From Elusimicrobiota bacterium (GTDB lineage: Bacteria > Elusimicrobiota > Elusimicrobia > UBA1565): DNA of 64,000 bases. Under the pieces are notes generated by a model. It was given only the letters and a program-made list of their open reading frames with translations. It ran no database searches and was not told the DNA's origin. Location of the stretch: assembly GCA_043827405.1 (NCBI GenBank), contig JBDRPD010000068.1, positions 1 through 64,000 on the forward strand. The letters run 5' to 3'. The translations under genes were made by a program, and so were the position numbers. Below are positions 1 through 33,252 of this stretch, in pieces; position 1 is the first letter of the stretch, and each line of letters opens with the position of its first letter.

Positions 1-1
1 G

Positions 2-3000
2 TATGCGGCGCTGTACGCGGCCGGAAGCGGCGCGCCGCTGCCCTTCCATGCCGCGGGAATCGGCCTGCATATCCTCAACGCTTTGCTGGTCCTATGGCTG
101 ATCACGGCCTTGTTCCGGTCCCGGACGACCGGCTTTATTACCGCTCTTGTCTTTCTGCTGCATCCTGCCCAGGTCGAGTCGGTAGCCTGGATAAGCGCCC
201 TAGCCAACCCCTTGTTCCTGACGACTTATCTGCTGGCGGCGCTGTTTTTCCTGCGGGCGCTCGATACCGGCAGCAAGACCTACTACCCGCTTTCGGCCTT
301 CTGCTTCGTTCTCTCTCTGCTCAGCAAAGAGATGGCGGTCACTCTCCCCATGCTCATGGCTGTGATCGTCATGCTGCGCCGGAGAGACGGGCAGAAGGCC
401 GCCTATTTGCCGGTTGCATTGTATGGCGCCGGAGCTGGCGGCTTCGCCGTCCTGCGCTCGCTGGTTCTCGGACAGACGGCGCAGACCGGCTACTGGGCGG
501 GGAGCTTCTACTTCCAGGCGCTGACCATGCTCAAGGGCTTCGCCTACTACGTGAAGCTGGCGCTGGCGCCCTATCCGCTGAGCCTCGAATACCTATGGCC
601 CGCCAAGCAGGGCTTGGACGCCGAGACGGCGTTCTACGCGCTGCTCCTCGGCAGCCTGTTGGCGCTCGGGGTCAAATTGCTGCGCCGGGCTCCGAAGGCC
701 GGGGTCGGCATCCTGCTCTTTGCCGGGGCGCTGGCGCCGGTGTCGAACCTGATCCCCCTGACCACCATCATCAATGAGCGTTTCATGTATCTCTCGCTTA
801 TCGGCTGGGGTCTGATAGTCAGCGAAATCCTCGAGCATTCGGGGCGCGCACGCGCGGCCGCGTTAGTCGCCGTCTGCTTGGCCTATGCCGGCATCACCAT
901 TGACCGCAATCGCGACTGGCGCGATGCCGAGTCGCTGGTGACCGCCAGCCTCAAGACCTGTCCCCAGTCCTCGCGGCTGCATGCGGCGCTGGGCAAGGTG
1001 CGGGTGGCGGAACGGGACTGGGATGGTGCGGCAGCCGCTTACCGGCAGGCGCTGGCGATCGAGGTGCTGGGCGACGCCGAGCGCGGCGCCGTGCATGCTG
1101 TTGAGCCGTGGGCCGCGGGGCTGTTGACGCGCGCGGCGGATTATCGCCGGGTAGTGCAGGTGCGGGTGGATCGCGGCGAGACTTACTTTCAGCTTGGTAC
1201 CATTCATATCCACCGCGGCGACTATGCGAAGGCCGAGGGCTATTTGGAGCTGGCCTTGAAGCATCGTCCGACGGACGCCAAGGTCATGCACAATATTGCG
1301 GTTGCCCGTGAGCTCGCCGCCGAAGAGTTTATGCCCCGGCTGCGCCGTGAGTACCCCGGCCTGGAATCCACCTGGAGCAAGCTCGCAGCGCTCAATTATG
1401 AGAGATCGGGAAGGAGCATCCTTCCCGGATCTGCCGCGCAGGGCCGCAATCCGCAGGAGCGGGAAGCGCTGCGGGCGCTGGCCGCGCGCGGTGCTCCGGC
1501 CTTTCCCAATACCTTCGGACGCGCCTATACGGTGCGTGCCGGTGATGCCGCGGTGGAAGTGCGGCATGCGCAGGGACGCGGGGTTACGGCGCAGGTCGGC
1601 GGCGGCGCCATCCAGTATCCGGAGGCGTATCCGGAGACCACGGTCTTTATCGCCGCCGGCGAAGGCGGCATCGAGGAGTTTTACTACCTGAAGTCGCCGC
1701 GGGCGCCCAAGACTTTCACGCAGGAACTGACGCCGCGGGGACGGATCAAGTCCTTCCGGCTGGATCCCGCGGGACGCCTCGAAGCCGTCGACGCCGCCGA
1801 CCGGACGGTCTTCCAGCTTTCCCGGCCGGTGGTGTTCGATGCCGCCGGCAAGCGCCGGCAGGGGCGCTTCGAGCTCAAGCGCGGCAAACGGACATCGCTC
1901 GCCATGAAGATCGACGATCGCGGCCTGCGCTATCCGCTGCTGATCGATCCGGCGTGGACCACGGCGGGCGCATCGAATATGAACTCTGTCCGTCAGGCAG
2001 CCACGGCGACTTTGCTTCCCAACGGCACCGTGCTGGTCGCCGGCGGCATGGACGGCGGTCCGACTCCTATCGGTACGGCTGAAATCTACGACCCGTTCGC
2101 CGGCACCTGGCGCACTACGGGGAACATGGCTACCGCGCGCGTCAATCACGGCGCGGTGCTGCTGCCCAGCGGAAAGGTCCTGGTCTTCGGCGGACAGGAT
2201 CAGGTATATGCCGTTCTCTCCTCGAGCGAGCTCTACGATCCCGACAGCGGAACCTTCAGCAGCGCCGGCAGCATGACGACCGCCCGGGTTATTCCGAGCG
2301 CGGTCCTGCTGCAGGACGGGCGGGTGCTGGTCGCGGGCGGTTGGAACGCCGGGACGCTGTCGACGGCAGAGGTCTACGTCGCCAGCGATACACCGAAATG
2401 GCAGTCGACGGCGCCGATGGGGAGCATGCGCTACGACCATACGCTGACCTCGCTGCCGGACGGTACGGTGCTGGCGGCGGGGGGCGAGGACGGCGGCGGC
2501 AATACCGTCAACACTGCGGAGGTTTACAGCCCGTTCCTGAATAACTGGAATCCGGCCCTCAACACTATGTCGGCGGCGGTACGCAGCCACGCCGCGACCT
2601 TGGCGCCCAACGGCAAGGTCGTGATCACCGGCGGCCGCATCCAGCCGGCCGGTACCGATCGGAATACCTGCGACCTGTTCGACCCGAGCACGCAGCTCTT
2701 CGCGCCTTGCGGCGGGAACATGACGCGCACGCATTCGACCCATTCCTCCGTCCTGCTGCCGAACGGCAGGATACTCATCGCGGGAGGAGACAGCGGCGAC
2801 GGCGGCGGTTCCGCGTCGCAGATCTACGATCCGGTCGGCGATTCCTGGGCGCTTGAGGTCAACCTGAGCAACGGCGCGCGCACCAGCGCGGTGTCGGTCC
2901 TGCTGCCCAGCGGCAAGGTGCTGATCGCCGGCGGCACGGGAAACGCCACCACCGACCTCTATGATCCGGATACCGGTTCTTGGGTCGGCGCAGGGAACTT

Positions 3001-6000
3001 TACCGACAACGCCCGCTACGACCATTCGGCGACCTTGCTGCCCAACGGCAAGGTGCTGATCGCCGGCGGCTATAACGGCGCGAACCCCGTCAACAAGTGC
3101 CAGCTCTATACGCCCGGCGGGGGCTGGGCCTCTACCGGCAATTTAAACACCGCGCGCGACCACCATACCGCGACCTTGCTGGTCGACGGCACGGTGCTGG
3201 TGGCCGGCGGCTTCGGCGCCGGCAATACGATCCTATCCTCGGTCGAGATCTACGACCCGGGCAGCGGCACCTGGGCGCCGGCCGACCCCATGAGCACCTC
3301 GCGCGCCTATCATACGGCGACATTGCTGGCCAATGGTGAGGTCCTGGTCGTCGGCGGCGTCGCCATTTTCGGCCCCAATCCTTCCCTGGAGACCGCGGAG
3401 ATATATGCCGGCGGCGGCTGGCGGCCGACGGCGTCGCTCATGGCGGCGTCGAAGCGTCAGCAGCATACCGCGACCCTGCTGACGGACGGCACCGTGCTGG
3501 TGGCCGGCGGCCTGGAGAACCAGTTCTTCTCGATATACAACGACGCCTTCATATTCGATCCCGACAGCGAAAGCTGGAGTTCCGCTCCGGGCATATTGAC
3601 GGCGCGCTACGGCCACAGCGCCACTTTGCTGCCGGACGGCCGGGTGCTCGTCTTCGGCGGCGAGAACACGCCGGTCAACGACACTGACATCTACACTCCC
3701 GGGGTGGCCTGGACCTCGTATAACTGGGGTACCGAGCGCCGCGGCCATACCGCGACCCTCCTTCCCGACGGCAAGCTCGCCGTCATCGGCGGCAACTTCT
3801 CCGGCCCGACCTTGAACGATGTGTCCGTCTACGCGCCCGGGACCAGCGTTTGGACCACCATGCCGACCTTGACGGCGAACCGCGAGTACCATACGGCGAC
3901 CTTGCTGCCCAACGGCAGAATCCTGGTCGCGGGCGGCTTCGGCGGCGCCGCCGCCCTGAGCTCGACCGAGCTCGCGCTCTATACCGAGTACGATCATGCC
4001 GCGGCCGGCGTCGACCATATGCGGCCGGTGATTGACGAGATCGCCGGCAATGCCTCGTTCCCGGTCTGGCTGACCACGGGGACTTATGTGATCACCGGCT
4101 CGACCTTCACCGGCGGCAGCGCCGCCGACAGCGGCCACCAGCACGACTCGCCGGGCGGCCATCCCCGCCTCCTGCTGATGCCGATGGGCGCCGACGGCTC
4201 CAACCATCGGGGCGGCGGCGGCCGCTTCATCGACCTGACGCACCGCATCTACGGCACCGCCGAAGAGACGTACTACAAAAACGGCCAGGCCGACGATACG
4301 CTGAAGTTCACGATCGACCCCAGCAGCATCGCCTGCGGCTACTACCAACTGCGGGTGATCGCCAATGCCGCGCCTTCCGACGCCAGGATCGTGCGCATCA
4401 CCGATCCCGTCATCGACGGCGCGCCGGGTTCCATCTCGCCGCCGTACGCGCAGGTGCGGACGACGACGGCGGCCGTCGACTGGGGGCTGCTCGCCGTGAC
4501 GCCCGACTACTACCGCCTGCATGCCTCGACGGCGGCGGACTATACGGGAGCCTGGGACGTGATCACCGGTACGGACTCGGCGGCTTCGTCGGGCGACCTC
4601 GAAGGGCTTTATCCGAACACGACCTATTACTTCCGCGTCGCCGGGGTGAACTGCGCCGGCACCGGCCCCTACTACGAGCCGGCCTCGACCTCGACCTTGG
4701 CCAATCGGGTCCGCGGGGTGGAGATGAAGGGCGTCTTCCTCACCAGCGCTACTTTTACCTGGCAGAAGCTGCCGACGGCGGCGCAGGAAGGCTCCACGAG
4801 CACCGCCGAAGGCTATATCCTGCAGGCTTCGGACGCCGAAGACTTCAGCACGACCATCTACTCAGCGCAGACGCCGCTGATCGGCTTGAGCACGCTGACC
4901 GTGACGGGCCTCAATGCCGGCACGACCTATTACTTCCGCGTGGGATCGCTCAACTGGAACAGCGTCGGCAACTTCGCCTCGACGATCGCGGCGCGGACCG
5001 ACGGCTGGTATGAGGAGTTTGTAACTGGGGAAACGGACCAGAGTATGGGCGCTGCCTGGGGCGATCTCGATAATGACGGCGATCTGGACTTTGTCGCGGT
5101 CAATCAAGGAACGTTCGTTCAGGTCTATCGCAATGATGGCGGCGGCAGCTTCAGCCTGCCTTGGGACAGCAACGCCGAGGGGGCAAAGTCCAACTACGCT
5201 GTTTCACTCGGTGATTACGATAACGATGGAGACCTCGACATCGCGATCGGGCGAGCTAATGAAGCTAACGTCGTTTTCCGCAACAACGGGAACTTCAACT
5301 TCGGATCCGCTCCGGTATGGTCGAGCAGCGAAGCTGACGACACAGAGGGAATCGCTTGGGGAGACTACAATAACGATGGCTACTTAGATCTCCTTGCCGC
5401 GAACCTTACGGCTAACCGTGTATACCGCAACAACGGCGACGGGACCTTTACCTTGGTCTGGACCGACTCCGAGTCGGAGAACACGAACGATGCCGCATGG
5501 GCGGACTACGACGGGGACGGGGACTTGGACTTCGCTGTCGCGTGCGAAGATTGTGCCAGTCGCGTCTACCGCAACGACGGCGCCGACACGTTTACCCCGG
5601 TCTGGAACGACGGCAGCCCGGGCGGTGCCGGGCGCAGCCCTGCTTGGGGGGACGTCGACAACGACGGGCGGCTCGATCTGGCCTTCGGATACAGAAGCGC
5701 GGCCAATCGCGTCTTCCGTCAGAACGGGACGGATAGCTTCGGCGAGATATGGAACGATGGTAGGAGTGACGATTCGGTCAGTGTCGCCTTAGGTGATTTT
5801 AACAACGACGGCCTGCTTGATTTGGCGTCCGGGAATTATGCTGAAGCGAACCGCATCTATGTCAACAACGGGGATCAGAGTTTTTCATCGATTTGGTTTA
5901 GCGCAGTCGCCAATAATACCGAGTCGATCGCCTGGGGGGACTATAATGGGGATGGCGGGCTCGATCTGCTGGCTTCGAATAGGTCGCAGTCGAATCGCGT

Positions 6001-9000
6001 CTACCGCGGTTCCTTCTCCGTCGTCAATACCTCGCCGACCGCGCCCGGCGGCATCGCCGCGGTCTTCGACGGCGACATCATGCAGAGCACCTTGACCATC
6101 AAGTGGGACGCCTCCGACTATGACGCCAACGGCTCGACCGAGAGCGTCTACTACGCGGTGGCTTTGACGACAATACCGATGATGCTGTCACCCGACAATC
6201 GCCGCATCCTCAAGCCGGCGGCCGGCAATGTCTCATCCTTCACGATTTCCGGCGTCGAGGCTTCGCCGCTGCTGGGTAAATACCTGCGTCCGGCCTACCA
6301 GGTATGGCCGGGCGACGCCGTGCCCAAGCACGGCGTCATGATCAGCACGACGCCCAACCTGCCCAATGGATGGCTGCTATCGGAGACTACCTACTACGTG
6401 CGGATCCAGGCCATCGACGCCGGGCTCGCCCGCAGCACCTGGAGCCGCGAAGTGGAGTTCCGGACCGGCAAGATCTGCGGTACGATGACGAGCCTGCAGA
6501 GCGGCGACTGGTCCGATCATGATACCTGGGTCGGCAGCGGCGATATGGTCCCCAACGACTGCACCGAGGTGACGATCGCCGGCGGTCATACTGTAGTTGT
6601 GGACACACAGTCCGCCGTCGCCAGCACCACGACGATCGAGGGCACGCTTAAGTTCAGCCGGGTGACGCACAGCACGCTGACTATCGTCGGCGGCGACATT
6701 ACCGTCGAGCCGGGCGGCCATTTGGACATGGGCACCGGCGACGATTCAATAGATGCTTCTTCCGCCTCGCTCGTTCTCGCCTACGGCAGCGTTGCCGGCG
6801 AGTTTGGCCTTATCATTAAAGACGGCGGCGACTTTACTGTGTTCGGCGCGACGCGGACTTCGGTAGCGGACCTGGGAGGAATCTTTATCAACCCATGGTC
6901 CACTAACTTCCAAGTAGGGGTAGCGAGCTCCACGGGCTGGAAGCCCGGCGATATGATCGTTCTGGGGCCGACTTCGGGCTTCGGCCAAGCGGTCGCGACT
7001 TCGCATACCATTACCAATGTCGGTCCAGGCGACCCGCGTATGATCATGTTTGAGCCGAATACGGGACCACAAATCCGTGTCGGCTACTCTACCAAGCCCG
7101 TCATCGCCGCCAATATTAGCCGCAATGTCATCATCCGCTCGTCGGGAACGGACACCACCGCCAACAGCGCCTACGTGGAAAGCCTGGTCAGCAATACTAC
7201 GAGCTTCAGCGTCTTCTACGGCGAGTTCGCCTATCTCGGCGCCGAGGGCGATCCGACCTGGGGCATCAAGCTGCAGAACGGCTCGCAGGCGCAGATCTCG
7301 AGCTCATCTATTCGCAACTGCCGCTACGGCCTCTATGCCAACAACGTCGACAATCTAACCTTTACCGACAATGTGGCTTACGGCAATGCGGCCAATGGCT
7401 TCACCTTGTATGGGGGCAATAATAATATCTACCGCGGTAATGTCGCCGCCGGCAATGACTCGGTTGGCTTCTATATCGGCGGCAGTTTCACCGAGAACGT
7501 ATTCGAGAAGAACTACAGCTTTGCAAACAACCTACACGGCTTCTACCTTGATTCAGGCGGCTCAATCGGCAACCTGCTGCAGGATAACCTGTCCTTCGGC
7601 AACGGCCAGCACGGCTTTACCCTGAACTATGCGGACCGCAACATTTTACTGAACAACCACGTCTACGAGAACGACGGAACGGGCTTTTATGTGAGCAACG
7701 AGTCGGACCTCAATACCTTCCAAGGGAATAGTGTTTCCGCGAATAAGTCCGCCAACGGCCTGGGCTTCCGCATCGACAACTCCTGGGCCAATCTCCTGGT
7801 GGATAACCAGATCTATATGAACGAGAGCACCGGCGTCTATATCCTCAATGGGGCGAGCGGCACCGTGATTTCTTCCGGCAGCGTCTACGGAAACGGCGGC
7901 TACGGCTATGCGCTGAAGAATTCCGTCGGCAACCAGATAGTGAACGGCTCGGTCGGCTTGCCGCAGTCGAATGCCGCCGGCGTCCTCTACATAGATCCGG
8001 ATGCCAATCCTGAGACCCTGGTCGCCAAGGCAGTCAAGAGCGACGACGGACCGCTCTCCACTGCGGCATTCAACAACTCCGGGACTTACCTCATAACCTA
8101 TGACGTCGATGCGAGCTCGAGCTCGGTGGGCTTTAACGGCGAGTACACGATCTCGGGCGAGACCTGGAACATCGATTACAATCAGCGGCTCTACGCCTCG
8201 ACGGCGACGACGCCCAGGCTGATGCGGGGTTCGGGCCACAGCGCGGCGATCTGCGCGCTAAGCGATACGAACGCCGTTACCCAGTACGTCTACGCGGCAT
8301 ACAACGGCGCCAACTGGGACCTCTACGGCTCGCAGGACGGCTTTATGGGCAGCGTCGCCGGGGGGCTGTGCCTGGACCCGGGGGCCGGTCAGTTTTCGAT
8401 CGATATCACCGAAGCCGCCCCGGCGCCGGGCGACCGGATCGACTTCCTGATGCAGGCGGCTTCCGGCGATGTGAACAGGGACAAGAGCCTGTGGATCGGC
8501 CCCTCGGCGGCAGGCTACAACCAGGGACGTTCGAAGCTGGTGGTGGCGCCCGACGGCGGCATCGTCTTCCGCGGCAATTCGAGCACCTATACCATCATCA
8601 ATTGGATGGATAACAATACGACATACTACAGCTTGGTCTCCTCGGGCGCCTTCACCGCGGAGTACACCTCCTTCACTAATTTGGACCATAACGGCCTGCA
8701 GCTTTCGGGCAATCAGGGAGTCGTGCTCTCAACGGTGAGTTTTGACCGCCTCGGTTTCTGGGACGGCGTCAACAGCGGCACCAATACCTACATCACCCTG
8801 CGCGACCTGACCGCGGCCGCGACCTTCTACGGCGTGCAGTTCGGCATGAGCCGCTCCTCCACCGGCTTCGACAGCGCCTACAATGTTCGGGTGGAAGCGC
8901 CGCATGACAACCTCGACGTCTATTTCGCCGGCGTAGCGACCAATTCCGGCGTTTACTGGGGGGAGGGCTACGAGGATGATGCGAACGGCCGGGTCACGTG

Positions 9001-12000
9001 GAACGATCTCATCTGCATGCCGCATGTGTCTAATCAGAGCGGGAACTGGACCGACCCGCTGACCTGGGACCCGCCGTATGTCCCGCAGGCCTGCACGACG
9101 GTGACGATCATGACCGGCGATACCGTGACGGTCGACACCACTACCGCAACGGCCAGTACGACGACGATCGCCGGGACTTTGCGCTTCAGCCGCGTGGCCG
9201 CGAGCACTTTGACCATGGTCGGCGGCGACCTTACGGTCGCTAACGGCGGACACCTGGACATGGGAATGGGCGGCGACCAGATAGCGACCACCTCGGCGAC
9301 TCTGGTGCTGGCCTACGGCCAGGCCGCGGGTCAGTTCGGCCTAATCGTCGAAAACGGAGGCCGCTTCACCGTTTTCGGCGCGACTAAAGTGCCCGCATAT
9401 ACTCCGTCCAGCAGCCAAATCCCGACCGGCAGCAACTACATGACGATCAACGTGCCCGGTCTGACCGGGTGGAAGACCGGCGACATCATCGCCATCGCTC
9501 CGACCTCGGGCAGCGGCCCGGCGGCTATCGCCACCCATACGATTACGCAGCTCGGTACGCCGGCGCCAAACGATATGTTCTTCACGCCGGGGGTGGGAGC
9601 GACGCGCGTGAATACGTCTACGGCGCCGATCATCGTCACCAACCTCAGCCGCACGGTTCTGATCCGCTCCTCCGGCACCGATACTGGCGCCAATACCGCC
9701 TACATCCGCAATCTCTCGGAGACGGCCGGCGACTTCTACGCCTACTACGGTGAGTTCGCTTATCTTGGGGCAAGCGCCTCCGGCAAGTACGGAATAACCT
9801 TTAACGGCGGTCCCGTTAAAGGCGGCATTTCCAGTTCGACGATCCGCGACGGCTATCACGGCATCTACCTGTTCTCGGCCGACGGCAATACGTTTACGGA
9901 CAACCTGATTTACAACAGCGCGGCTATCGGCCTGTACGGCGCCTCATCCTCTAATAATGCGATCGCCAATAACCATATTTTGGGCGGCGATAGTTATGGG
10001 ACGTACCTGACGCAGTCGGACGGCAATACGCTGTCCGGCAATATGGTTTACGCCAACGGGAATTCCGGCATCTATCTGCTCGACTCCGACGATAACGGCA
10101 TCGCCGGCGGCCGGCTATTCGCCAACAGCGGCAGCGGGCTGTATTCATCCTACTCCGCTAATAACGATTTCGACTCTGTCGCGGCATACGGCAACACCGC
10201 CAATGGCGTTATGCTCAACGGCGCTTCCAGCCATACGGTTACTGCCGGTAGTTTTTACGGCAACAACTTCTACGGCATTTACGCCGGCGGCGGCTCCAAC
10301 TATAACCGCGTGCAGGACAACGAAGCCTTCGCCAACAACAGCGGTCTCGTATTTTCCGCCGCCGCCGACAATGTCGTGTCGTCGAACGTTTTCCGCGGCA
10401 ACGCCGATCGCGGCATATGGCTGGACGGCTCGGACAACAACGTCTTCGCCCACAGCATCTCCTCGGGCAACAGCGGCTACGCCGTCTACCTGGAGAACGC
10501 TTCCGACGGCAATTTCTTCATCGAGGGCCACTACTACTCCAACCCCGGCGGCGTCTATACCTCCAACTCGTCAAGCAATGTCTTCGCCGGCGGCGCCCTC
10601 GGCTACAGCGAGACCGGCGCGGATAGGTGGAACTCTCCGTCCGGCGAGGTCGACTTCGACGCCGCCGCCGGCAAGAAGGACAAGCTAACCCTCAAGGATG
10701 TGCGGGTTAACAGCATGATGGGTATAAGTTCGTGGGGCTTAAACGAGTCCGGCGAGTCCTTGCTGTCCTACGACCAGGACGACGCCACCGGCACACTGCG
10801 TCTGTACGGCGACTATGAGCTCTTGGGAAGCACCTGGACCTTCGATACCTCGCTCAACCTCTATGCCGCAACGCATACCGCGGCCCGGCTGATGCGGGGC
10901 AGCGGTCATCAGATATACAACATCGCGCCCCAGGATATTGGGGCCGTCAATGAGGTGATCAGCGTCGAATGGATGGGGACCGACTGGCGGGTCGAGGGTT
11001 CCGCCTCAGGCGTGCTTGACGGCGGATTCTGGTGCCCGGCCGGAAACACCTGCGGCTTCACCGATCCGGTCGTCGACTTCACCCTGAATCCCGCCGGCGT
11101 GATCAACGTCGGCGATCGCTTCGATTTCGCGCTGATCGCGGCCTCCAAGGACGCCGGCTTCCAGAAGCGCCTGCTTTTTGCCAATGCCAGCTGGCAGGCC
11201 GGCGCCTTCAACGAGGGCAAGTCGCGGCTGGTGGTCGCTCCCGACGGCGGCATCGTCTTCAAGGGGGCGGCCGGCAGCCATGCCATCATGGACCGGCTCA
11301 ATGCCGCGTCGACCTACTACACCTTCGTCGATTCCGGAGCCTTCACCGCCGCCTTCTCTTCCTTTACCAATATGGACTACTCAGGCCTTCAGCTGTCCGG
11401 CGACAAGGGGATAGCGATCTCGAGCACGGTCTTCGACTACCTGGGTTTCGCCACGGCCACCAACGCCTACATCACGGTGCGCGACCTTGATTCGGCGGTT
11501 ACAATCGACAGCGTGACCTTCGCCTTGTCGCGCGGCCTGCCGGGAGGCACCAACGCCTCTTACAATATTCGGGTCGAAGGCGACGACTCAAACCTCGCGT
11601 GGACCATTACCACCCAGAACCTCGGCCCGCTTTGGGGCGACACCTATGACGACGACGCCGGACGGCGCGTCGCCTGGCGGCACTGCAATGGCGTTGTAAG
11701 CTCCCAGAACGGCGACTGGTCCGATCCGACTATGTGGGACGGCGGTTTTGTGCCGACCGTCTGCAATGCCGTTACAATCGCCGGCGGTCATGCGGTCGTC
11801 GTCGACGAAATGGGCGCGATCGCGAAAGGTCTCGCCATCGACGGCACGCTGAGCGCGAGCCGAGCGGTAAGCAGCAGTCTGACGATCACTGCCGGCGACC
11901 TCAACCTCAGCCCCGGCGGTACGCTCGACTACGGCACTGAGGCCTCGCCGGTCCCGACGGGCGTTGACGCTCATGTCGTGCTGGCTTACGGCTCCAGCGC

Positions 12001-15000
12001 CGGCGAATACGGCCTCATCGTCAACAATACCGCCAAGTTTACCGTTCGCGGCTCCACCCGGACGCCGTTCGCTTTGGCGACGCAGAGCGCCACCGGCGGA
12101 CAGACCCAGGTCCGGGTGCCCAGCGTGGACGCCGTGGGCTGGGTCGCCGGCGACCGGCTGGCACTCGGGCCGACGGATGGCGACGGCGAGGGGTTGACTG
12201 AAGAGTTCTTTATCCAGTCTATCGACGCCGGCAATCCGCGCACGGTGACTTTGTCGGGGAGCGTCGGCGCGACGCGCGTCCGCACCTCCACGACGCCGAT
12301 CGTGGTCGCCAATCTGACGCGCAACGTCCTGGTGCGTTCCTCCGGCACCGATACCGCGGCCAATACCGCCTATATCCAGAATCTGACCCAGTCTCCCGGC
12401 GACTTCGTTCTGGACTACGGCGAATTCGCGTATCTGGGCGCCAACGCGGCCGACAAGCAGGGCATCAAGTTCATGTCTTCGGGCGTTGAGGGGCGCATCT
12501 CCAGCTCGACGATCCGCGGCGGCTACTACGGCATCTACGTCAATGTCGGCAGCAGTCACAAGCTGGCCTACAACGTTCTCTACGACAACGCGGCAAGCGG
12601 TATCTATGCCATCAATATGGCCGGCAGCACGGTGGCCTACAACAGCGTCATGGAGAACGGCCAGCACGGCATTTATCTGTTCAATAGTACCGGCGGCGAC
12701 GACATGCTTCAGGCCAATATGGTCTTCGCCAACGGCGACGACGGCATCCGTCTGTCCAAGGGCTTCGAGCATCGGCTGCGTGAAAACTACGCCTTCAGCA
12801 ACCTAAACGACGGTATTGAGGTCGACCGCATCTACGACAGCGAATTCTCATCCAATACCGCGCACAGCAACGGCGGCCGGGGCTTGTACTTGGTGGACTT
12901 CGGCAGCAATACGTTGACCGGCAATATCGCCTACAGGAATGCCAGCAGCGGCACGGTTCTCAGCACCGCCGACCTGAACGTGTTCGAAGACAATAGCGCG
13001 CACGGCAATTTCGGGGCCGGCTTCTATCTCTCCAATTCGGATAACAATACTTTTATAAGGAACGAGGCCTATGCCAATACCACAGGTGAAGGGCACGGGT
13101 TCAACCTGCAGAATTCCGAGCGCAATGTGTTCGCCGGCAATACCTCCCACTCCAACGCCGGCGACGGCGTGCGTTTGTATAGCGGCGACTACAACCGCTT
13201 TGCGGGCGCGCGCATTTACAACAATGCCGGCGACGGCATCTGGTACTCGCAGACGTCCGACGCGGAGTTCGGAGACGCTTGGCTCGGCTATGACGCGGAG
13301 GGCGCGGATCGGCCCGACGGCGGCGCCGAAGTCCAGCTCGATCCAGCGTCGCCCCCGGGTGCAATCGTCGATCTGCGGTCGTCGAGAGTCAACCCCGCTT
13401 CCGGCATTTCGACCTCGGGCTTCAATGACCAGTTAAAGCTTCTCGTATCGTGGAACCAGGACTATGATACCGGTACTTTGCGGCTTTTCGGGCATGTCCC
13501 GCTCGACGACACCCTGACCATAGGCTACGCTGACGCGCTGACCGGACCGACCACGACGCAAGCGCGTCTTACGCGCGGCAGCGGCAACTTCCTCACTGTC
13601 TGCTCGATCGACGCCGCCTCGGCGGTGTCCCAGATCGTCTACGCGACAAAGGTCGGCGCGAACTGGGAGGTGCGGGGGTCTTCATCGGGCTATATGGGGA
13701 TCGCGGCGGTCGCGTCCTGCCCCGGCACCGATTTTGGGCAGTTCCGGCTGAGCGTGACGGAAAGCGCGCCGAGCGAAGGCGATCGGATGGACCTCCTCCT
13801 GCTCGCCGGCACCAACGACGCCAACCGGCAGAAGAGGCTCCTCATGGGGCCGGCGGATCCGGCCTATAACGAGGGCCGTTCGAAGTTCGAGGTCCAGCCC
13901 GGCGGCGGCCTGGTCCTCAGCGGCCAGCCCGGCTACCCGACGATCATGGACCGCATCGACTCCGGCGCGACCTACTACTCATTCGTGTCTTCCGGCTCCT
14001 TCACCGCCGTCAACTCCTCGATCACCAACGTCGACTACAACGGCGTCTGGCTCAGCGGAGCGGGCCCGGTCGTGATCGCTACTTCGACCTTCGACCAGAT
14101 GGGCGTCGCCGCGGCGGTCAACTCATACATTACGGCCAACGAGCTCTCCGGCGGCGCGACCTTCTATAACGTCAAGTTCGGCAGCGCCCGCAGCACCGAG
14201 GGAGTCACAGCCTACAACGTGCGCTCGGTCGGCGCGTCAACCCCCGACTGGTACTTCCGCCGCTGGCACGGCGATATGGGGGGGGAGGATTACGACTCCG
14301 ACAGCGGCGAGATCAAGTGGACGGATCTGATGCCGTCGCCGCCGACCAATGTGGCGGCCGTGCAGACGGGCTCTTCGGTTACGCTGAAGGTCAGCTGGGG
14401 CGGGTCGGAGCGCGACGGACCCAGCTTCCGCCTGGTCTCCGGCAGCGAGTACTACATCCAGTGGAGCACCGAGACGCCGGACAGCGTCGACTGGAGCACC
14501 GCCAACGCCCAGGTGGTGCAGGCGACCGGCCCGGTCAACAGCGTCAGCGTCAGCCATACCATCGGCGGCTTGCCGGCGGGCAAGACGGTCTATTTGGGGA
14601 TCTGGTCGCGCGACGAGCTGGGCCGTTACTCGCGGCGCTCGGGCCTAGGCAGCGGCTTCAGCGCCCCCTTCACCAGCGACGTGCTCGCCTCCGGTCTCGG
14701 CGCCGGATCCGACGAGCATGACATGGCGGTCGATAAGGATGGGAACGTCCATGTCGTTTACGACGACGGGATCGCCGGTCAGGTCAAATACGTCAAGCGA
14801 ACGGGCAGCGTTTGGAGCGCGCCGGTGAATGTCGGGCCGTTGGCGGGGGGTACCCCACCACGGCCTGCAGTTGCTGTTGATATTAACGGCAACCCTCATA
14901 TCGTTTGGGCAGAAACATCGTCAAAGGTCAGCTACAGTTCCTCAACTGATGGCGGAGCAACTTTTACCACTGCAGATGAGATCTATCCATATGGAGCAAA

Positions 15001-18000
15001 GACGCATGATCTTGCGCTGGACGGACGCGGAAGTCCGCACGTCATTTTTTATAACGGAGGTCTGCAATACACTAAGAATTCTACCGGAGCCTGGACTCAA
15101 GGTGAATCTATCAGCGGAGTGAGCAATAGCTCGCCGAGCCTGGTCTTGGACGGAGACGGTCGCCCGCACATTATATACATGGATGGCCTTAATCTTATGT
15201 ACGCAAGCCGGACATCGAGCGGGTGGAACAAGATCAGCATATACTCCGATTCGGCATCTTCACAAAACGGCTCATTGGTGATCGACGGCGCTGGTCGACC
15301 GCATGTCGCCTATGCCGCTCAAGATACAGGCAATCTCCTTCACTTGTACTACGATGGTGGTTCTTGGAATTCATTCGTAGTGGACGTCGGAGGCAGTCCG
15401 GGCATGCCGTCCTTGACACTTGACGGCGACGGCTATCCGCATATCGCCTACATGGCGAACACCCCCGGGGATTTGAAGTACGCGTACTACGACGGCGCAT
15501 CCTGGTCGACGATGACGGTGGCCTCGGACGGGAACATCGGCTTCGTGCCGGTCATCGCCCTCGACGGCAATGCCAATGTGAACATCAGCTACCTCGACCT
15601 GGAAGCCGACCGTTCGCTGCATATCTCATCATGGACCGCGACCGGCTTTGCCGTGCCGATGGGCGGCAATCCGCGCGGCAAAGTGCAGGCGCCGACCGGG
15701 ATGACGGCGACGCAGGTCTATATCGCCAGCGCTACCTGGAACTGGCAGGACAACAGCGCCAATGAGGTCGGCTACCGTCTCTACGCTTCAAGCTATGGCC
15801 GTGTCGATGCCGCCTTCTCGCTGCGCGTTGATTCCAATACCATGGGCCCCGGTACCGTGAGCGCGACTTTGACCGACCTGACGCCCGATACGACCTACGA
15901 GCACTACGTCGCCGCGGTAAGCGAAGGCGGGACCGTGACCTCGACCGCGGCCTGGATTAATACCTTGGCGGATCACCCCTCGGCGGCCGCCGTGCCGGTG
16001 GCGGCGATCTATCCCGCCAGCATGACGGTATCCTGGCAGACCGGCGCCAACCCCGCATATACCGAGTACGCGGTGCGGGCCACGACCGCCGCCGATTTCT
16101 CGGGCGGCTTCAAGTATCCGCCCGGCGGCGCGGGTTGGATCGTCGATGCTTCTACCGAAATCGTCGGGATTAGCGAAGTCAATGCGACTTATTATATCCA
16201 GGTCGCGGCGCGGAACCTGAGCGGCGTTGAGACTCCCTATATCCTTACGGTAACGACGCCCTCGCTGGCGAACCTCCCGGCGACTACCGGCAACGACTTC
16301 AGCGCTGTTTCGAGCCACTCTCTGACTGTGACCTGGAGCGCCAACGGCAATCCGGCGAATACCCTCTACCGGGTGATGCTGGCGACCTCCAGCCCCTTCT
16401 CCAGTTCGCTGCAGGTGTCGACCGCGCCTTCCGGCGCCTTGTCGACGGATTTCGCCGGCCTGCGGGGCAATACGACCTATTACCTCGCCGTCGAGGCATT
16501 CAACCATGCCGGCGTCGGCACCGGCGATACCATCCTCAGTTCCACGATCACCCGCATCGCTCCGCCGACCCAGGTGTTCTTTGACCGCATTTCCAGCGAC
16601 ACCATAGTGGCCTCGGCTTATGCGCCGACGCCGGCGTTCAATAACCTGCACGCGGGACGTTCGGCGACGGCGATCAGGCTCGACGGCGGCGGCTACGCCA
16701 ACTGGCGCGGCAGCACCTGGACTTTGCTCTCGCCGCTGGCGGCGGGCGGACGTTCGATGCTGGGCGGCGGCGCGATCGACGGTACCGTCTACGCCGTCGG
16801 CGGCGACAACGGCGGCTACCTGGATCGGACTGAAGCCTATGATCCGGGCGGCGATTCCTGGGGCTCCACGAATGTTCTCAACACCAGCCGGCGGGCGGCG
16901 GGCTTGGCGGTCGCTGACGGCAAACTCTACGCTATCGGCGGCTTCAATGGCGCCTTCCTGAACTCGGCCGAAGTATATGATCCCGATACCAACTCCTGGA
17001 CCTTCGCCGACACCATGCCGTCGAATCGCGCGGCCATAGCCGCCGCCGCATTGAACGGCAGGATTTATGCCGTCGGCGGACTGACCGGCGGGACCGAGCA
17101 GGCGACCAATCAGGAGTACGATCCTGCGGCTGACCAGTGGGCCGGCGCCAATAAGACCGCGATGACGCAGGCCCGCGCGTATGCGGTCGCGGTCGGAACC
17201 TTCGGCAAGGTCTACGTCTTCGGCGGCAGCGACGGCGGCCAAACCACGCTTTATGACGATGTCGAGGCGTACGACCCTGTCGGCAACGGCTGGACCAGCG
17301 GAGCTCCGATGCCGACTTCGCGCCACGGCATGGCCGCGGGGGCTATCGGGGGCAAGATCGTCGTCGTCGGCGGCGAGGATATGGGCGGCGTGGTGGCGCT
17401 GAACGAGGAGTACGATGCTCGAGCCGACTCTTGGGCGGCTCGCGAGCCGATGCTGACGACGCGCGCCTTCGCCGGGAGCACGGTCGTCGACGGCAGACTT
17501 TACGTCTTTGGCGGTCACGACGGCTCACCGCGGGACGTGGTCGAAAAGTACGATCCCGGCGTGACGCAAAAATTCACCGGCCTGAACCCGAACTCCTTCC
17601 ATCAGTTCCGGGCCAAGGCGCGCAACTCGGCGGGCACCGAATCAAGCGAGACCGCGCTGTTCAGTATTTATACTTTGGCGGCCGTGCCGAGTACCGCCAC
17701 CCCGTCCTTCCAGACCGTCTTCCCGACCTCGGCGACCTTCCAATGGACCTCCAACGGCAATACCGGAGGCGCCACCGACTATCGGGCCGAAGCCTCGTCG
17801 GCCCCCAGCTTCAGCGGCACGCTCTACGCCATGGGCTGGACGGTGGCGCTGTCGACCGGCTTTACCGGCCTGGCGGGGAACTCCACCTATTACTTCCGCG
17901 TGCAGGCGCGCAACGGCGACGGGGTGGAGACCGCGTTTAAGGACCTCGGCTCAACGGTCACCGCGGCCAACCCGCCGCTGGCGCCGGTCGCGGCGCAGGT

Positions 18001-21000
18001 GGAGAAGTCGTCGGCAATCTTCGAGTGGAGCGCCAACGGCAATGCCGACGGGACCGGCTATGTCGCACAGCTCGCGCTCAACGAGAGCTTCGCTCCGGTG
18101 GACCGTTCTTCTTTTACCCGCAGCACCTATGCGATATTCGGGGCCAGCGGTCTGGGGGCGGATCTGGCTCTTAATACCACGTACTACTTTCGCGTCCAAG
18201 CCGTGAACCGGCGCGGCGCGCCGACTATTTTCACCTCGACCATTTCGGCCCGGACGCTCGTCGAGGCGCCGGGGACCGCCGCCGAACCGTTCCCGGTGGT
18301 CGGCGCCGACGCGATAGAATTCGCATGGGGCGATGGCGGTAATCCGGCCGGTACGCTCTACGAGGCGGATATCTCCACCGATAACTTCGCCACGCTCAAC
18401 CTTACTTCGGCGACCTACAGCACCTCGACGCTCTTCGGTGCGGGCGGCGAGGGTCTCGCGCTGCTGACCAATGCGACCCACTACTTTCGCGTGCGGGCGC
18501 TGAACTCAAGCGGCAATCCGACGGTCAATACCGCGGTGGTGTCGACGCCGACCTGGGCGACGCTCCCGCTGAGCGCGGCAGCGCCGTTTCCGAACGTCGA
18601 TCTGTCCTCGATGACCTATGAATGGAACCCGGACGCTAATAAGCCGGGGACGCTCTACCGCGTCCTGCTGTCGACGGACGATTTTTCGACGGTCAACCTG
18701 TCCTCGTGGACGCGCGGCGTCTCGGTGCTCTTCGGCACCGGTGGTGAAGGCCAGGCGCTGGACCAGAATACGACCTATTACTTCAAGGTGAATGCCGTCA
18801 GCCATGCGGGGCTGGAGACCGGCACGCTGCAGGAGTCGACCCATACCCGGGCGGCGATCCCGGCGGCGGGCGCGCCGGTCTTTAGCGATGTGCAAGTCGG
18901 CTCGGTCACCTTTAACTGGGGAGAGAACTCCAACCCGAGCGGCCTTACCGACTACTACGTCGAGGTCGGGACGGCGGCGGACTTCGCGACGCTGACTTTC
19001 GTATCGTCGACGACAGCGACGGCGCTTCAGGCCGGGGCGGGCGGCATCGGACCGACGCTCGACTTAAACACCACCTACTACTTCCGCGTTCGCGCCCGCG
19101 ACCTGGGCGGTACCTATACGCTTTATGGCGCGGAGCAGTCGACGGCGACCTTGGCCGCTGGTCCGGTGGGCGGTTCATTCGCCGATATCGGAGTTTCTTC
19201 GGCTGTCTTCCAGTGGACGGGCCCTGATCCGGCGTATACGCTCTACGAGGCCCAGGTCTCGACCGACGCTTTCGCTACCGTCAGCCTGACTTCGGCGACG
19301 CGCGAAACCGCGGCGGTATTCGGGACGACCGGCGAGGGCGCGGCGTTGGACCCGAGCACCACGCATTACTTCCGGGTACGCGCGGTTAACCGCGACGGAA
19401 TCCCGACGCTCTACGCCTTTACGGCGTCGACGCATACTTTGGCCGCGGTCCCGGCGAGCGCGGCGTCCGCCTTTACCGCCTTACATCACAGCTCCATGAC
19501 GGCGGCTTGGAACGCCAACAGCAACGGCGCGGGCACGGTCTATGAGGCGGTGCTGTCCACCGGTTCCGGCGGCGTTCAGGGCTACGCCGGCGACCAGACG
19601 GTCTCGACGCATCCCGCCGGCGCCCCGACGGCCGATATCACGGGTCTGGTCGCCAATACGACCTACTACCTCTATGTGCGGGCGGTCAATCCCGACGGCT
19701 GGCGGAGCGATTATGCGGTTCTCGGCTCCACGCCGACCTTGCCCAATGATCCGGCGGCCGCCGCGCCGCCGTTCTTCGCCGTCCACTTCACTTCGGCGAC
19801 CGTCAACTGGGACGAGAACGGCAACCAGACGGGGACGCTTTACAGCGTGGCGCTGTCGACCGGGTCCTCCTATCCGAACGGTTACAGCGGCAGCGTCGAG
19901 ATCTCGACGACGCATGCCGCGGCTCAGCCGACGGCCACGCTGACGGGGCTGTCGGCGAACGCGACCTACTACCTGCATGTCGCGGCGTTCGGCCGCAGCG
20001 GCGCCCGGACGGCGTATCTGAATTCGGGCTCCAGCGTCACCGCGGCTTTGCCGCCCGTCACCGCGGCTTCCACATTCTCCAGCGTCGCGGCGACGAGCCT
20101 GACCGGCGTCTGGGAAGCCAACGGCAATATTCCGGGCACGCTGTTCGAAGCGATCGTTTCCACCGGCAGCGGTCTGCCGAGCAGCTTCGCCGGCGATGTG
20201 GAGGTCTCGACCCGGCCGGAGGGGACGCCGGCGGCCGATTTCGCCGCTCTGACGCCCAACTCAACCTACTACCTCATCGCGCGCACCATCGGTCATGACG
20301 GCACGTCGACGAGCTATGCCGCTTTCGGTTCGACCGTCACTCCGGCGGCGCTGCCGGTGGCCGCGGTCCCGGCCTTCTCCTCCGGTTCAACTACGGGTCT
20401 GGTCGGCGACTGGGGAGCCAACGGCAATCCGCCCGACGATACCCGCTATGAGACCGTGCTGTCCACCGCGTCGTCACTGGTGCTCACCGCTGCGGGCAAC
20501 GTGCCGGTATCGACCGCGCCGGCCGGTGCGCCGTCGGCCGAGTACACGTCCCTCGAGGTGAATACGACCTATTATCTCTTCGTTCGCTCCGTGGACCGGC
20601 TGGGACGAGCCACCGCCTTTGCGGCGGTCGGCTCGTCGGCTACCCAAGCCAATGCGCCTTCTACGGTGCTCGTCTCGACGCCCTTCGCGCAGGTGGACTA
20701 CAACGCGATCCGTTATGTCTGGGACGCGAACGGCAACCCGGACGGCACGGTCTATACCGCCGAAATGGCGCTGGACGCTTCGTTTGCGCTCGTCGACCGC
20801 TCGTCGGTGACGGTCGGTACGGAGGTGATCTTCGGCAATCAAGGCGCCGGCGCCGACCTGACCTTCCAGACTACGTACTACTTCCGGGTGCGGGCGGAGA
20901 ACGTGCGCGGCGTACCGACCGATTACACGACGGTTCAGTCCACGGTAACCCTGCCCGACGATATCATCCCGCCGACCATGACGAACAATCAGCTCGGCGA

Positions 21001-23557: not shown

Positions 23558-25545
23558 TGGGGATGGTTCGAGCGCTAATCTGTGTGCTCTGCGCGTTCAG
23601 CGGCCTGACGACGGCGCACGCGCAGTTGGCGGGGCAGGCCGTCCTGGTGCTGGATTCCTCCCGCAGCCCGCGCACTTCTTTCTCAACCAACGAGCGAGCC
23701 ACCTTCCAGCAGAAAGTCTCCAACGGCGCGGCCAGCAGCGGCCGAATCTATTTTACCTTCATCGTCGCCGATCCCCAGCTTAAGGAGGTGTTCCGGCATG
23801 CCGGCAATGCCGTTCCCGGCCGCGTCGGCAACGCCGCCAGCCAGCTGGCCGGCGTGCAGATCTCGTCGCTCTATACCGTGCCCGGCGTCTACAAGCTGAC
23901 CGCGCGCGCGATCCTGGACGCTCAGGTCGTCGACCAGGAGCTTTCTTTCACCGTTTCGTCGCCCAATATCCTGCTGATCTATCCGCCCAACGGCGCGCAG
24001 GACGTCGCCGACAAACCGTTGATGTTCCGCTGGTCATCAAGCGGGGCCGCCAAATATCGCATCACGGTCGGAGATAACCCGTCTTTCTTCAACTCCGTCT
24101 ACAACGCCAATACCGAAGGCAACGTGAACGCCATCAGCTATCCGGAGAACCCCGCCGATGCCCGGGCGCGGCTCGCGGCGGGCACGGTGTACTACTGGAG
24201 AATCGAGGGGCTGGACGCCAACGATAACGTCGTGGCGCAAAGCGCGGTTCCTTTCTCTTTCACCGTCAAGTCGGCGTCGCTGTCGCGCGATATCGCTGTG
24301 ACCGGGCTGGAGATTATCGGCAAGTCGGGCGATAATATTACCTTCAAGGTGACCGTGCATAACCAGGGGGGGACCAGCGAGAGCGGCCTGCAGCTCAAGT
24401 TCAGCATCGGAGGGGTCCCGGTGGCCGGCTCCCCCGTGCAGATGCCGCTGTTGTCACCGAGCGCAGTCAAGACCTACAACTTTACCGGGCAGCTCCCGCC
24501 CGACCAAGGCAAAAGCCTGGCCATCGGCTGCGTTGAGTTTTTCGACGATAATGTCGCCAACAACTGCAAGACGATGCAGCTGACGCGGACGGTGGAAGAG
24601 GCGGCCGGCGACGCGTCGATTTTCGCCGCGCGCAAGCTGTCGAACGAGGAGATCTGGAGCGCGATCCAAGAGCTGCTGCGCGATCGCGGCGTCGATCTGA
24701 CCGAGTACTCTATCGTCGGCATGGACAAGGACATGACGCGGGCCGAGCTTGAAGCGCTGCTGGCGGCGCTGCGCAGCGGCCAGGCGGATGTTTCCGTGAG
24801 CGGACCGGCGGGCGGCGCGGCGGACCTGCCGTCCTTCATCCCGCCGCCGGTTTCGGCGGGACCGCCGCCGGACGCGCCCGATGACCTGCCGGCGGACAAG
24901 GGCGAGGAGCGGATAATGACGGACAAGGAGCTGTGGCAGGCGCTGCAGCCGCCGCTCAAAGGACGCGGTTTCGACCTGACCCAGTTCGCGGTCCTCGGCG
25001 CCGACCGGCGGCTGACGGCCAGTGAGCTGCAGATTCTCTTGGCCGCGGTCAAAAGCGGCGTCGCCGAGATCCTGGTGTCGGGACCGGCGGCGCCCGATGT
25101 GATGCCTGTCGCGGCGGAGTCCGCGCCGCCGGCTGCCGCGCCGCCGCCTCCGGCGGCGGATGAAGACCGCCAGTGGCGGGGGCTCGCGCCGGCGCTGAGC
25201 AAGAAGACCGCGCACCTGAAAATCACATCGAACAAGCACTGGAGCAAGGTGTGGAAGCGCCTCGGTGGAAAGAAAACGCCGAAGATCGACTTTGCACAGT
25301 ACATGGTCATCGGCGTCGTCGCCGGCGGCGAGGAGCGATCCGACCGGGTTGAGATCGTCGAGGTTCGCAAGTCGCTTTCCGGCCTGCGGGTTCTCTACCG
25401 GCGGGTTGTCCACCGCCGTATGCTGGCGCCGCTGGGTCCGCAGCAGGCGGCGGCGCGCGATCTGGTGCCTTATCACCTGCGGGTGATCCCGAAGTCGGGG
25501 CTGAAGATCCGCTTTGAGCATGTTAGCGAAACAGGGGGGAGGTAA
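23557..25545 (+). CDS. Exported protein with Ig/FN3-like and CARDB domains, a duplicated ~58 aa unit, Pro-rich linkers and a PrcB C-terminal-like domain
   Basis: Signal peptide (..TTAHAQ). CARDB-like DIAVTGL...VTVHNQG...DDNVANN. PrcB_C-like WSKVWKR..PKIDFAQYMVIGV...PYHLRVIPK. ATG overlaps the stop of the giant gene. Confidence 0.7.
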   Translation: MGMVRALICVLCAFSGLTTAHAQLAGQAVLVLDSSRSPRTSFSTNERATFQQKVSNGAASSGRIYFTFIVADPQLKEVFRHAGNAVPGRVGNAASQLAGVQISSLYTVPGVYKLTARAILDAQVVDQELSFTVSSPNILLIYPPNGAQDVADKPLMFRWSSSGAAKYRITVGDNPSFFNSVYNANTEGNVNAISYPENPADARARLAAGTVYYWRIEGLDANDNVVAQSAVPFSFTVKSASLSRDIAVTGLEIIGKSGDNITFKVTVHNQGGTSESGLQLKFSIGGVPVAGSPVQMPLLSPSAVKTYNFTGQLPPDQGKSLAIGCVEFFDDNVANNCKTMQLTRTVEEAAGDASIFAARKLSNEEIWSAIQELLRDRGVDLTEYSIVGMDKDMTRAELEALLAALRSGQADVSVSGPAGGAADLPSFIPPPVSAGPPPDAPDDLPADKGEERIMTDKELWQALQPPLKGRGFDLTQFAVLGADRRLTASELQILLAAVKSGVAEILVSGPAAPDVMPVAAESAPPAAAPPPPAADEDRQWRGLAPALSKKTAHLKITSNKHWSKVWKRLGGKKTPKIDFAQYMVIGVVAGGEERSDRVEIVEVRKSLSGLRVLYRRVVHRRMLAPLGPQQAAARDLVPYHLRVIPKSGLKIRFEHVSETGGR

Positions 25546-25549
25546 AGTC

Positions 25550-26329
25550 ATGAGAAGAATAATGATGGGAATAGGAAGCCTGGCGGCCTGCGCGCTGCTG
25601 GTCGCGGCGTCGGCGCCGCCGGAGCTTCTGGCGCAGGGCAAGGAGGTTACCGCGGGCGTCGTCATCGACGTGCGCGGCAAACCGCGCATCGTGCGGCGTA
25701 AGGATGCGGCTGAGCTGGACGGCATATCGCGGGAGGACAAGGACAAGGCCGGCCAGCGGCTTAAGACGAACAAGTTCGTTTATGAGGGCGATGTGATCAT
25801 CACCGGCCGCAGCGACCGGGCGGCGGTCGCCTTCGTGGGCGGCGCCGAGGTCCGCATTAACTCGAACTCGGAGTTCGTCGTCGAATCGGGGGGGGGGCGC
25901 CGGCCGACAAGCCTGTTCACCCGGGTGGGGCAGGCCTGGACGCGGATGCTGCACGGCAAGTCGGGCATGAACATCCGCACGCCGCTGGCCGTGGCCGCGG
26001 TGCGCGGTACGGAAGCGGACGTGGACATGGGCCAGCGCCTGGACGTCAAGGTCTATGAGGGCCACGTTGATGTCTCAAACAAGTACGGCACTCAGACGCT
26101 GCGGGCCGGGATGATGACGTCGGTCTCGGGGCCGGGGGTCGCTCCGGCGGGCGCGCGCCGTATGGGCGAGGGCGATCAGGGCAGCTGGCAGAATGCGCTG
26201 CAGCCGAAAGCCATCGAGAAGAAGCTCCAGCGCCTGCAGCAGAAGGCGGACAAGGAGCGCAAGGTCCAGCTGAAGTACATGCAGGACGGCAAGCCGGAGG
26301 AGCTGAACCTGGAACTGGAGAAGAAGTAA
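25550..26329 (+). CDS. Exported FecR-domain protein
   Basis: GGAGG RBS before ATG 25550. Signal peptide. GDVIITG..RAAVAF..GAEVRINSNS and IRTPLAVAAVRGT...VKVYEGHVDV motifs. Confidence 0.85.
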   Translation: MRRIMMGIGSLAACALLVAASAPPELLAQGKEVTAGVVIDVRGKPRIVRRKDAAELDGISREDKDKAGQRLKTNKFVYEGDVIITGRSDRAAVAFVGGAEVRINSNSEFVVESGGGRRPTSLFTRVGQAWTRMLHGKSGMNIRTPLAVAAVRGTEADVDMGQRLDVKVYEGHVDVSNKYGTQTLRAGMMTSVSGPGVAPAGARRMGEGDQGSWQNALQPKAIEKKLQRLQQKADKERKVQLKYMQDGKPEELNLELEKK

Positions 26330-26362
26330 GACGCCGGCTGAGGGCCGGCTGGAATAGACAGC

Positions 26363-31372: not shown

Positions 31373-31378
31373 GAGGCG

Positions 31379-33082: not shown

Positions 33083-33252
33083 AGCAATAGAATTCCCAAT
33101 CCGTGCCCGCAATCCGGCACGAATCGGCGTTGAAGCGCTTCGTTCCAATAGTAACAGCGGGCTGTTACGATTTCAAGACTGCGTTAACAAGGATTTAACA
33201 CGCAAAAATAAGCCTTTTCTTTCGACTGCGAGGAGGGAACGTGAAAAAGCCT

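Follow-up and report, generated by a model that had tools for sequence, protein, structure and literature searches.

A TMTC-like glycosyltransferase domain joined in one reading frame to giant surface proteins of Elusimicrobiota

The window described here, 64,000 nucleotides at the start of contig JBDRPD010000068.1 (C68) of an Elusimicrobiota bacterium (GCA_043827405.1), opens inside a giant gene that reads in frame +2, without interruption, from base 2 up to a stop at 23557 (7,851 aa). This single frame joins a polytopic glycosyltransferase domain to a very large passenger, and the fusion is real, not an artefact. On the plus strand, a TMTC-like GT-C membrane domain (2..910; transmembrane (TM) helices TM2–TM11; motifs HPxQxE, an altered M3, KE, EY, PVxN and ERxxY) ends in TM11 (848..901), the last TM helix, assigned N-in/C-out from its sequence, the positive-inside pattern and analogy with passages of PMC7801869. 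Tetratricopeptide repeats (TPRs; 905..1321), one repeat fewer than in close relatives, lead to what we call the IDP domain (1322..1957), a helical lead-in plus a galactose-mutarotase-like, DUF7948-like beta-supersandwich ending in YPLLIDP. Fourteen Ser/Thr-rich Kelch repeats, two propellers by count (1958..3982), are in the conserved core of all fusions, and a galactose-oxidase-like E-set (Ig-like) domain (3983..4402; PF09118 on relatives) closes it. The core thus comprises GT-C, TPR and IDP domains, ~14 Kelch repeats and E-set (~1,500–1,650 aa); what comes after it differs between proteins, some having a short Trp-rich tail and others thousands of residues more. Here the variable passenger (4403..23275) holds FN3, FG-GAP, G8 with beta-helix, a third Kelch block, a long FN3 array and carboxypeptidase-regulatory-like domains, before a C-terminal sorting domain (CTD) like that of type 9 secretion system (T9SS) type A cargo, with the stop (23276..23557; TIGR04183 39.5 bits, cut-off 23).

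Pfam gives weak GT-C matches at residues 24–306 and TPRs at 302–433 of the window protein; residues 1 to ~303 form the polytopic GT-C domain (PMT_2, E 8e-5). The initial annotation had Kelch repeats starting at the junction; this is corrected here, as 1331–1957 is a helix plus beta-supersandwich and the Kelch repeats begin at ~1960. The modelled supersandwich aligns at Z 9–11 (~10) with chondroitinase, mutarotase and lyase domains. DUF7948 (PF25778) gave no match on the window protein, and E 0.001 on the database protein P0134 (Atlas lead 0.85).

The N-terminus is supplied by a second contig, C103, whose 3' end overlaps window positions 1–844 at 91% identity. Its frame adds 76 residues with TM1 and the motifs DD and WRP (C103:3286-3513), from a GTG start that overlaps the stop of a PorV-like gene; C103 and C68 combined give an inferred complete protein of ~7,927 aa. 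In sequencing run X1, the contig with the C103 upstream DNA has depth 17.4 and that with the giant gene 17.5, and both meet via short bubbles. Because of these depths, and because an orthologous PorV-like gene stands directly upstream of the fusion in relatives G003 and G017, as on C103, strain alleles of one locus fit the overlap better than two copies, short of proof. The alternative of two paralogues is less likely, the shared stretch having depth 21.6 against 17.4–17.5 in its flanks. The two alleles differ with a pN/pS (nonsynonymous to synonymous polymorphism) of 0.27, in which a short compensated frameshift inflates pN. RNA runs X3 and X4 yielded only two short foreign pieces against the locus.

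The junction between enzyme and passenger is bridged in two studies. One Logan contig from X1 (record 7; 38,391 bases, depth 17.5) spans 473–6000 gap-free, with all 16 differences from the window within 583–677, and X2 (record 9), from a second study and 94% identical, spans 65–1548 with two compensated indel pairs at 413–461 and no net frameshift; the X2 frame was judged by indels, so that a stop codon arising by substitution in that strain is possible. The AlphaFold2 (AF2) model of 1160–2125 (pLDDT 92) predicts a single helix that links the TPR cap to the passenger and includes Met444 (1277..1351, plus strand; pLDDT 94–97). This helix holds the in-frame ATG at 1331 (Met444), which we rejected as the start of a separate gene: no signal peptide follows it, the Met is unconserved in relatives, and it lies mid-helix. 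A Kyte-Doolittle scan found no signal peptide between the TPRs and the C-terminus, the sole hydrophobic stretch being one Kelch strand, and no conserved cleavage site or motif was seen at the junction. The same linker-free junction is modelled as a single helix in G052, G039, G014 and P0122; some fused relatives have Pro/Ala-rich linkers. The proposal of the initial annotation that GT-C and TPRs run stop-free into a surface protein of >7,000 aa, with no internal signal peptide, therefore stands, and the contigs show no break where it had asked for one to be sought.

The same fusion occurs elsewhere. In ten of 60 relatives, a single frame of 1,291–5,107 aa encodes GT-C, TPR and the next domain; five such frames are cut by a contig end and two by an N-gap. 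They fall in three families (G003 and G014; G017, G027, G035, G037, G039, G051 and G052; G018). A 300-genome phylum sample, searched with four candidates scored per genome and holding at least eight other fused frames, adds G080 from another class, for a total of 11 other genomes. Protein databases contribute 15 more non-redundant fused proteins (P0003, P0005-P0010, P0122, P0126, P0128, P0134, P0138, P0151, P0159 and P0219), leaving out P0002, P0004, P0124 and P0163 as duplicates of counted genomes; the source names of P0002 and P0005 are Elusimicrobiota. Fused proteins range from 1,666 to ~7,900 aa, with complete natural versions of 1,666–1,800 aa in P0005–P0009 and P0138. A related-locus search of genome contigs with 247 pattern matches returned only four hits, to unrelated TPR proteins. 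The relatives thus share the order GT-C, TPR, IDP, Kelch as one gene, not two. That two genes were joined by a lost stop, a chimeric contig or a strain effect is accordingly close to negligible in probability: the gene does begin at a contig edge where alleles 91% alike overlap, and X1 is possibly the source sample itself, but the junction is bridged in two studies, the 26 further fused sequences already refute it, and G+C at third codon positions is steady across the junction (0.74–0.88).

A tree of 173 rows places the fused GT-C domains in one clade of 31 tips (FastTree support 0.98; IQ-TREE SH-aLRT 97, on a subset), outside which lie all 128 standalone rows and the 13 standalone loci that were added. 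Leaving out the window allele and one duplicate gives 29 clade rows, 26 of which are shown fused to an IDP domain; of the other three, two (G306 and P0001b) are truncated, and in P0001a a second GT-C domain follows. P0128, though joined to the same passenger, clusters among standalone paralogues (SH-aLRT 96). The 969-aa P0001 consists of GT-C, TPRs, a linker and a second GT-C domain, the latter being the closest relative of the window's domain. The fusion is a covalent union of known parts, conserved over families and two classes. No description of it was found in the literature searched, although supplementary domain tables may hold such an architecture; the main texts of PMC11573180 and bioRxiv 10.64898/2026.06.07.730766 contain neither 'TMTC' nor 'mannosyl', and passages of PMC7801869 mention prokaryotic TMTC homologues only as full-length standalone proteins.

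The enzyme domain has a recognizable fold. The AF2 model of the C103-allele GT-C domain (pLDDT 96) best matches Pmt4 (Z 17.3, root mean square deviation (rmsd) 4.6, 301 residues aligned), Pmt1 (Z 17.3, 4.4, 300) and ArnT (Z 17.2, 4.8, 302), and the top 19 structure-alignment rows (VIA-align) are all GT-C proteins (Z 10–17). This fold, with DD in the first external loop (EL1) after TM1, places the domain in the GT-C superfamily. Foldseek gave GT-C rows only above E 0.001; a PDB sequence search with the domain gave no matches, and a profile search gave TPR proteins among the 60 matches listed. There are 11 TM helices, ten from the C103 model and TM11 in the window, with TPRs after them. Basic residues lie in the loops after TM2, TM6, TM8 and TM10, and by the positive-inside rule DD, the TPRs and the passenger are thus inferred to be periplasmic, as in TMTC1-4; everything after TM11 is predicted to be periplasmic or exported.

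The 29 clade rows (34–76% identity, median 44%) share 32 invariant columns out of 302, including both M1 Asp, R and P of M2, E of M4, E and Y of M5, P and N of M6 and E, R and Y of M7, residues that passages of PMC7801869 assign, for M1, M2 and M4–M7, to binding of acceptor, metal and donor lipid phosphate. The initial annotation had called for a check of the catalytic DD: it is present in EL1 in 29/29 clade rows, for the window protein on C103. M4 keeps K in 28/29 and E in 29/29, M6 (PxxP-like in TMTC) its first P in 29/29 and M7 (ERxxY) its E, R and Y in 29/29; in M5, EY aligns to the DW of TMTC in 29/29. Only [WY]RP remains of the TMTC M2 motif SHKSYRP, the sugar-contacting SHKS part being different. 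The 'DUF1736-like' label given earlier rests on homology and motif order, the fused GT-C domain aligning along its length with the PF08409-bearing bacterial protein P0030 (BLASTP E 8e-31). The profile itself, Pfam DUF1736 (PF08409), has no score on the window protein and no match on 7/7 fused domains at E up to 5 (a genome-wide search also gave none, with its control silent too). Since PF08409 is silent and M3 is altered, we call the domain TMTC-like and do not file it as a TMTC member or mannosyltransferase; by its motifs, it may work like a TMTC.

A protein search with the IDP region returned 144 new proteins, 11 of which match the GT-C profile (among them the record of the window protein itself and a fragment). 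Most other IDP proteins, among the matches listed, have a signal-peptide-like start, then the IDP domain and often Kelch repeats. Since unfused homologues begin with a signal peptide, the enzyme module occupies the place where one usually stands, and its role as export and anchor element of the passenger is well supported by these comparisons, in line with the membrane anchor first proposed.

The CTD sets the window protein apart from most of its family: only P0126 and G080 among the other fusions carry one (in the window protein PF18962 scores 23.2, under its cut-off of 27). Passages of PMC10994853 describe T9SS cargo as binding PorV through the CTD and then being pulled out. The cleavable N-terminal Sec signal peptide of such cargo is replaced here by TM1 of the GT-C domain. 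The genome of the window encodes a SprA-like outer-membrane protein of 1,936 aa (G000:C17:8077-13884; L051, L052) with three collinear TIGR04189 matches (best E 8e-20, under the cut-off), and SprA-like frames were found in 5/5 other fusion-bearing Elusimicrobiota genomes examined; PF14349 (SprA_N) had no match in the genome, where its control was silent too. PorV-like genes number 12 by PF19572 and 26 frames by phmmer, and 26 frames end in a CTD-like domain by a profile built from nine of them. Most of these PorV-like and CTD frames are paired, the giant gene standing immediately 5' of the PorV-like one. The window protein, with its N-terminus in the inner membrane and a CTD at the other end, has either to cross the whole envelope or to be cleaved. 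The paradox between the two ends that was pointed out at the outset thus holds for the window protein, whose genome has SprA-like and PorV-like genes; for the family it does not: with CTDs on only three fusions, it was added late and does not explain why enzyme and passenger were fused. A speculative candidate for a cleavage site is the Asp-Pro within the IDP motif. In the window, FliG-like (589 aa), MotA-like, MotB-like and TPR genes stand in a row (28322-33148, minus strand), and a flagellin (PF00669) was not detected in this genome, which is 98% complete; the set is perhaps a stator and rotor without a flagellum that powers the T9SS-like route.

Together these observations suggest the following model. 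A single gene would yield a protein of ~7,927 residues. Its TMTC-like GT-C domain, with 11 helices, would enter the inner membrane first, and the last helix would serve both to start export and to anchor the chain; TPRs, supersandwich, Kelch repeats and the rest would, given the predicted topology, be carried into the periplasm. The enzyme, made first and tethered beside the translocon, could then use a polyprenyl-phosphate-linked sugar to glycosylate Ser/Thr on emerging passenger beta-strands (Kelch, E-set, FN3), by analogy with TMTC and TMEM260. Passages of PMC11292533 place the sites of TMTC1-4 on cadherin strands and those of TMEM260 on IPT strands, that is, on beta-strand Ser/Thr of Ig-like domains, and report O-mannose on FN3 domains also. 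In most family members the protein would remain membrane-tethered; in the few with a T9SS tail the far end might be handed to the PorV/SprA-like outer-membrane route, the protein then spanning the envelope or being cut free, a speculative step. Activity is surmised from the retention of DD, RP, E, EY and ERxxY across the 29 rows, and the pN/pS of 0.27 between the alleles counts in favour of the model as well. Glycosylation in cis is plausible by analogy, and an active enzyme that both anchors the passenger for export and glycosylates it in cis is the reading we favour, at a little below an even chance. More tentatively, the product could be a self-glycosylating surface protein, sugar-coated in cis, whose CTD-bearing members hold the inner end of the filament through a T9SS-like translocon. 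Circumstantial backing for glycosylation comes from standalone GT-C genes: several of the best-scoring homologues lie beside CTD-bearing secreted proteins in G238, G221, G117 and G148 (one genus), G070 and, at 1.5 kb, G262, and none of 16 other standalone loci has a CTD within 1.5 kb. At two loci of genus g83 (L079:7704-13342 and L081:7666-13678), a standalone TMTC-like gene sits between two CTD-bearing secreted proteins with ends touching or overlapping; one CTD protein is glycoside hydrolase-like, and a sugar ABC transporter adjoins.

Several observations weigh against cis-glycosylation. Passengers of fused proteins are not enriched in Ser/Thr: over the first 300 Kelch residues, the median Ser+Thr fraction is 0.238 in fused (16/26 scorable) and 0.228 in unfused proteins (22/132; p 0.37). 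The genome also holds three standalone TMTC-like genes and four weaker GT-C matches that could act in trans, and the tree hints at an independent origin of the P0128 fusion, an idea not adopted here, since a single origin is unrejected (approximately unbiased test, p 0.21). The fused enzyme could itself act in trans, with TPRs, supersandwich and Kelch as recognition arm or scaffold and another exported protein, an envelope glycan or a lipid as acceptor; AftD and EmbC carry carbohydrate-binding modules as a comparable arm. The same motif conservation fits this alternative, as do the unenriched passengers, the fold of the first passenger domain, common in carbohydrate-active enzymes (Z ~10), the tie of the lipid A modifier ArnT with Pmt1/4 as top fold match, and the 26 CTD-bearing frames as possible targets. 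However, the passenger occurs in many phyla as a secreted protein in its own right, its adhesin-like modules vary in length (1,666 to 7,900 aa) instead of forming a fixed binding arm, and a tether favours the nearest acceptor, so that we regard action in trans as rather unlikely, if a serious contender.

Other observations bear on whether the enzyme is active or needed at all. Asp of the M3 motif RxD, which lies in the second external loop (EL2) and is here RxN or xxN, occurs in 0/29 clade rows (N 26, S 2, G 1), and its Arg is kept in 20/29 and lost in 9/29, including the window protein, which has neither; standalone rows have D or E in 97/128. As M3 lies near the sugar according to passages of PMC7801869, its change may mean another donor or reduced activity. 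Among 14 relatives with a true IDP domain, ten are full fusions, the enzyme is absent from three (G006, G060 and G012), and in G040 all that is left of the module is the last helix with shortened TPRs; IDP matches in G032 and G056 were discarded as spurious. At the orthologous locus of G006 (L045/L046; G006:C40 from about 60290), the PorV-like orthologue is followed, after 1.2 kb, by an unfused 12,133-aa passenger whose N-terminus is signal-like. The IDP domains of G006 and G012 contain endonuclease-like insertions. The module is therefore losable or replaceable. It might be a pseudo-enzyme that only exports and tethers the passenger and perhaps binds lipid, like PIG-U, a non-catalytic subunit with the GT-C fold that matches our model at Z 13.7; the M3 changes and the substitution of a signal peptide or last helix in G006, G060 and G040 speak for this. 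Yet a mere anchor would not need DD, KE, EY and ERxxY, which are kept in 28–29 of 29 rows, more strictly than in standalones, and we judge a pseudo-enzyme improbable. Marginally more doubtful still is a polyprotein in which fusion couples only synthesis and export and the passenger is cut at once, at the IDP Asp-Pro or a linker, leaving independent parts. D and P of the motif are at least 90% conserved, some relatives have the Pro/Ala-rich linkers, and the CTD-first exit of T9SS cargo through SprA in passages of PMC10994853 is hard to square with a permanent inner-membrane tether; but the DP motif also occurs in unfused proteins, the window protein and four relatives have one helix in place of a linker, no conserved cleavage motif was seen, and only three fused proteins bear a CTD.

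Other genes of the window accompany the giant gene. Coupled to it (23557-28294, plus strand) are a 662-aa CARDB protein with a 1-base overlap, a FecR-like protein of 271 aa and a 643-aa frame without Pfam match. Two further PMT_2-type GT-C genes lie at 36228-38339 (minus strand) and 60053-61792 (plus strand), one adjoining a sulfatase-GDPD fusion (33565-36231). A minus-strand multiheme cytochrome frame (534 aa by open reading frame call) stands beside an unannotated 1,103-aa frame at 49102-53999.

Homologues of TMTC are, according to passages of PMC7801869, very common in bacteria but uncharacterised. Evidence from gene neighbourhood is weak; an in-frame fusion that is conserved and has retained the catalytic residues points to a candidate acceptor. 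If the protein does glycosylate itself, this would provide the first direct (Rosetta-stone) connection from TMTC homologues of bacteria to beta-rich protein acceptors, and the natural versions of ~1,700 residues offer a one-gene test system. The fusion is also relevant to whether TMTC1-4 encounter folded or unfolded substrates, which passages of PMC11292533 leave open, and to the export and anchoring of giant proteins in groundwater Elusimicrobiota.

Among known systems, the archaeovorins of Omnitrophota are, in passages of bioRxiv 10.1101/2023.11.21.568195, likewise giant membrane-bound proteins of a related groundwater phylum with glycosyltransferase and TPR domains and with cleavage left open, but those passages describe GT1-type, SecA-like and peptidase domains among many TM helices and no N-terminal TMTC/GT-C module. 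The window protein resembles T9SS type A cargo (passages of PMC10994853) in a CTD that passes TIGR04183 and in the SprA-like and PorV-like genes of its genome, whereas such cargo usually has a cleaved Sec signal peptide, and the SprA match is far under the family cut-off. TMTC1-4 (CAZy GT105) and their standalone prokaryotic homologues share, in passages of PMC7801869, the 11-helix GT-C domain followed by TPRs, and M1, M2 (RP), M4, M5 (acidic-aromatic), M6 and M7 in the same order; the fusions differ in a passenger of 1,100–7,400 residues, in M3 (RxN/xxN for RxD), in M5 (EY for DW) and in the silence of PF08409. TMEM260, the IPT-domain O-mannosyltransferase (passages of PMC11292533), also combines GT-C with TPRs and acts on Ig-like beta-strands, and the fusion core ends in an E-set Ig-like domain, but TMEM260 acts in trans and is set apart from the fusion enzyme by its motif pattern. 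The top fold matches, fungal Pmt1/Pmt4 and bacterial ArnT (PDB 6p2r, 9e61 and 5f15; Z 17.2–17.3 over ~300 residues, rmsd 4.4–4.8), are 7–12% identical and have neither TPRs nor passenger. Because the Pmt proteins and ArnT modify different acceptors, protein and lipid A, the fold does not name the acceptor. HMW1C, Aah/TibC and GtfA/B of serine-rich repeat proteins are, as here, enzymes linked with a single large surface protein; they are cytoplasmic, use nucleotide sugars and are encoded by separate neighbouring genes, whereas the fusion places a predicted lipid-donor membrane enzyme on the same polypeptide as its passenger.

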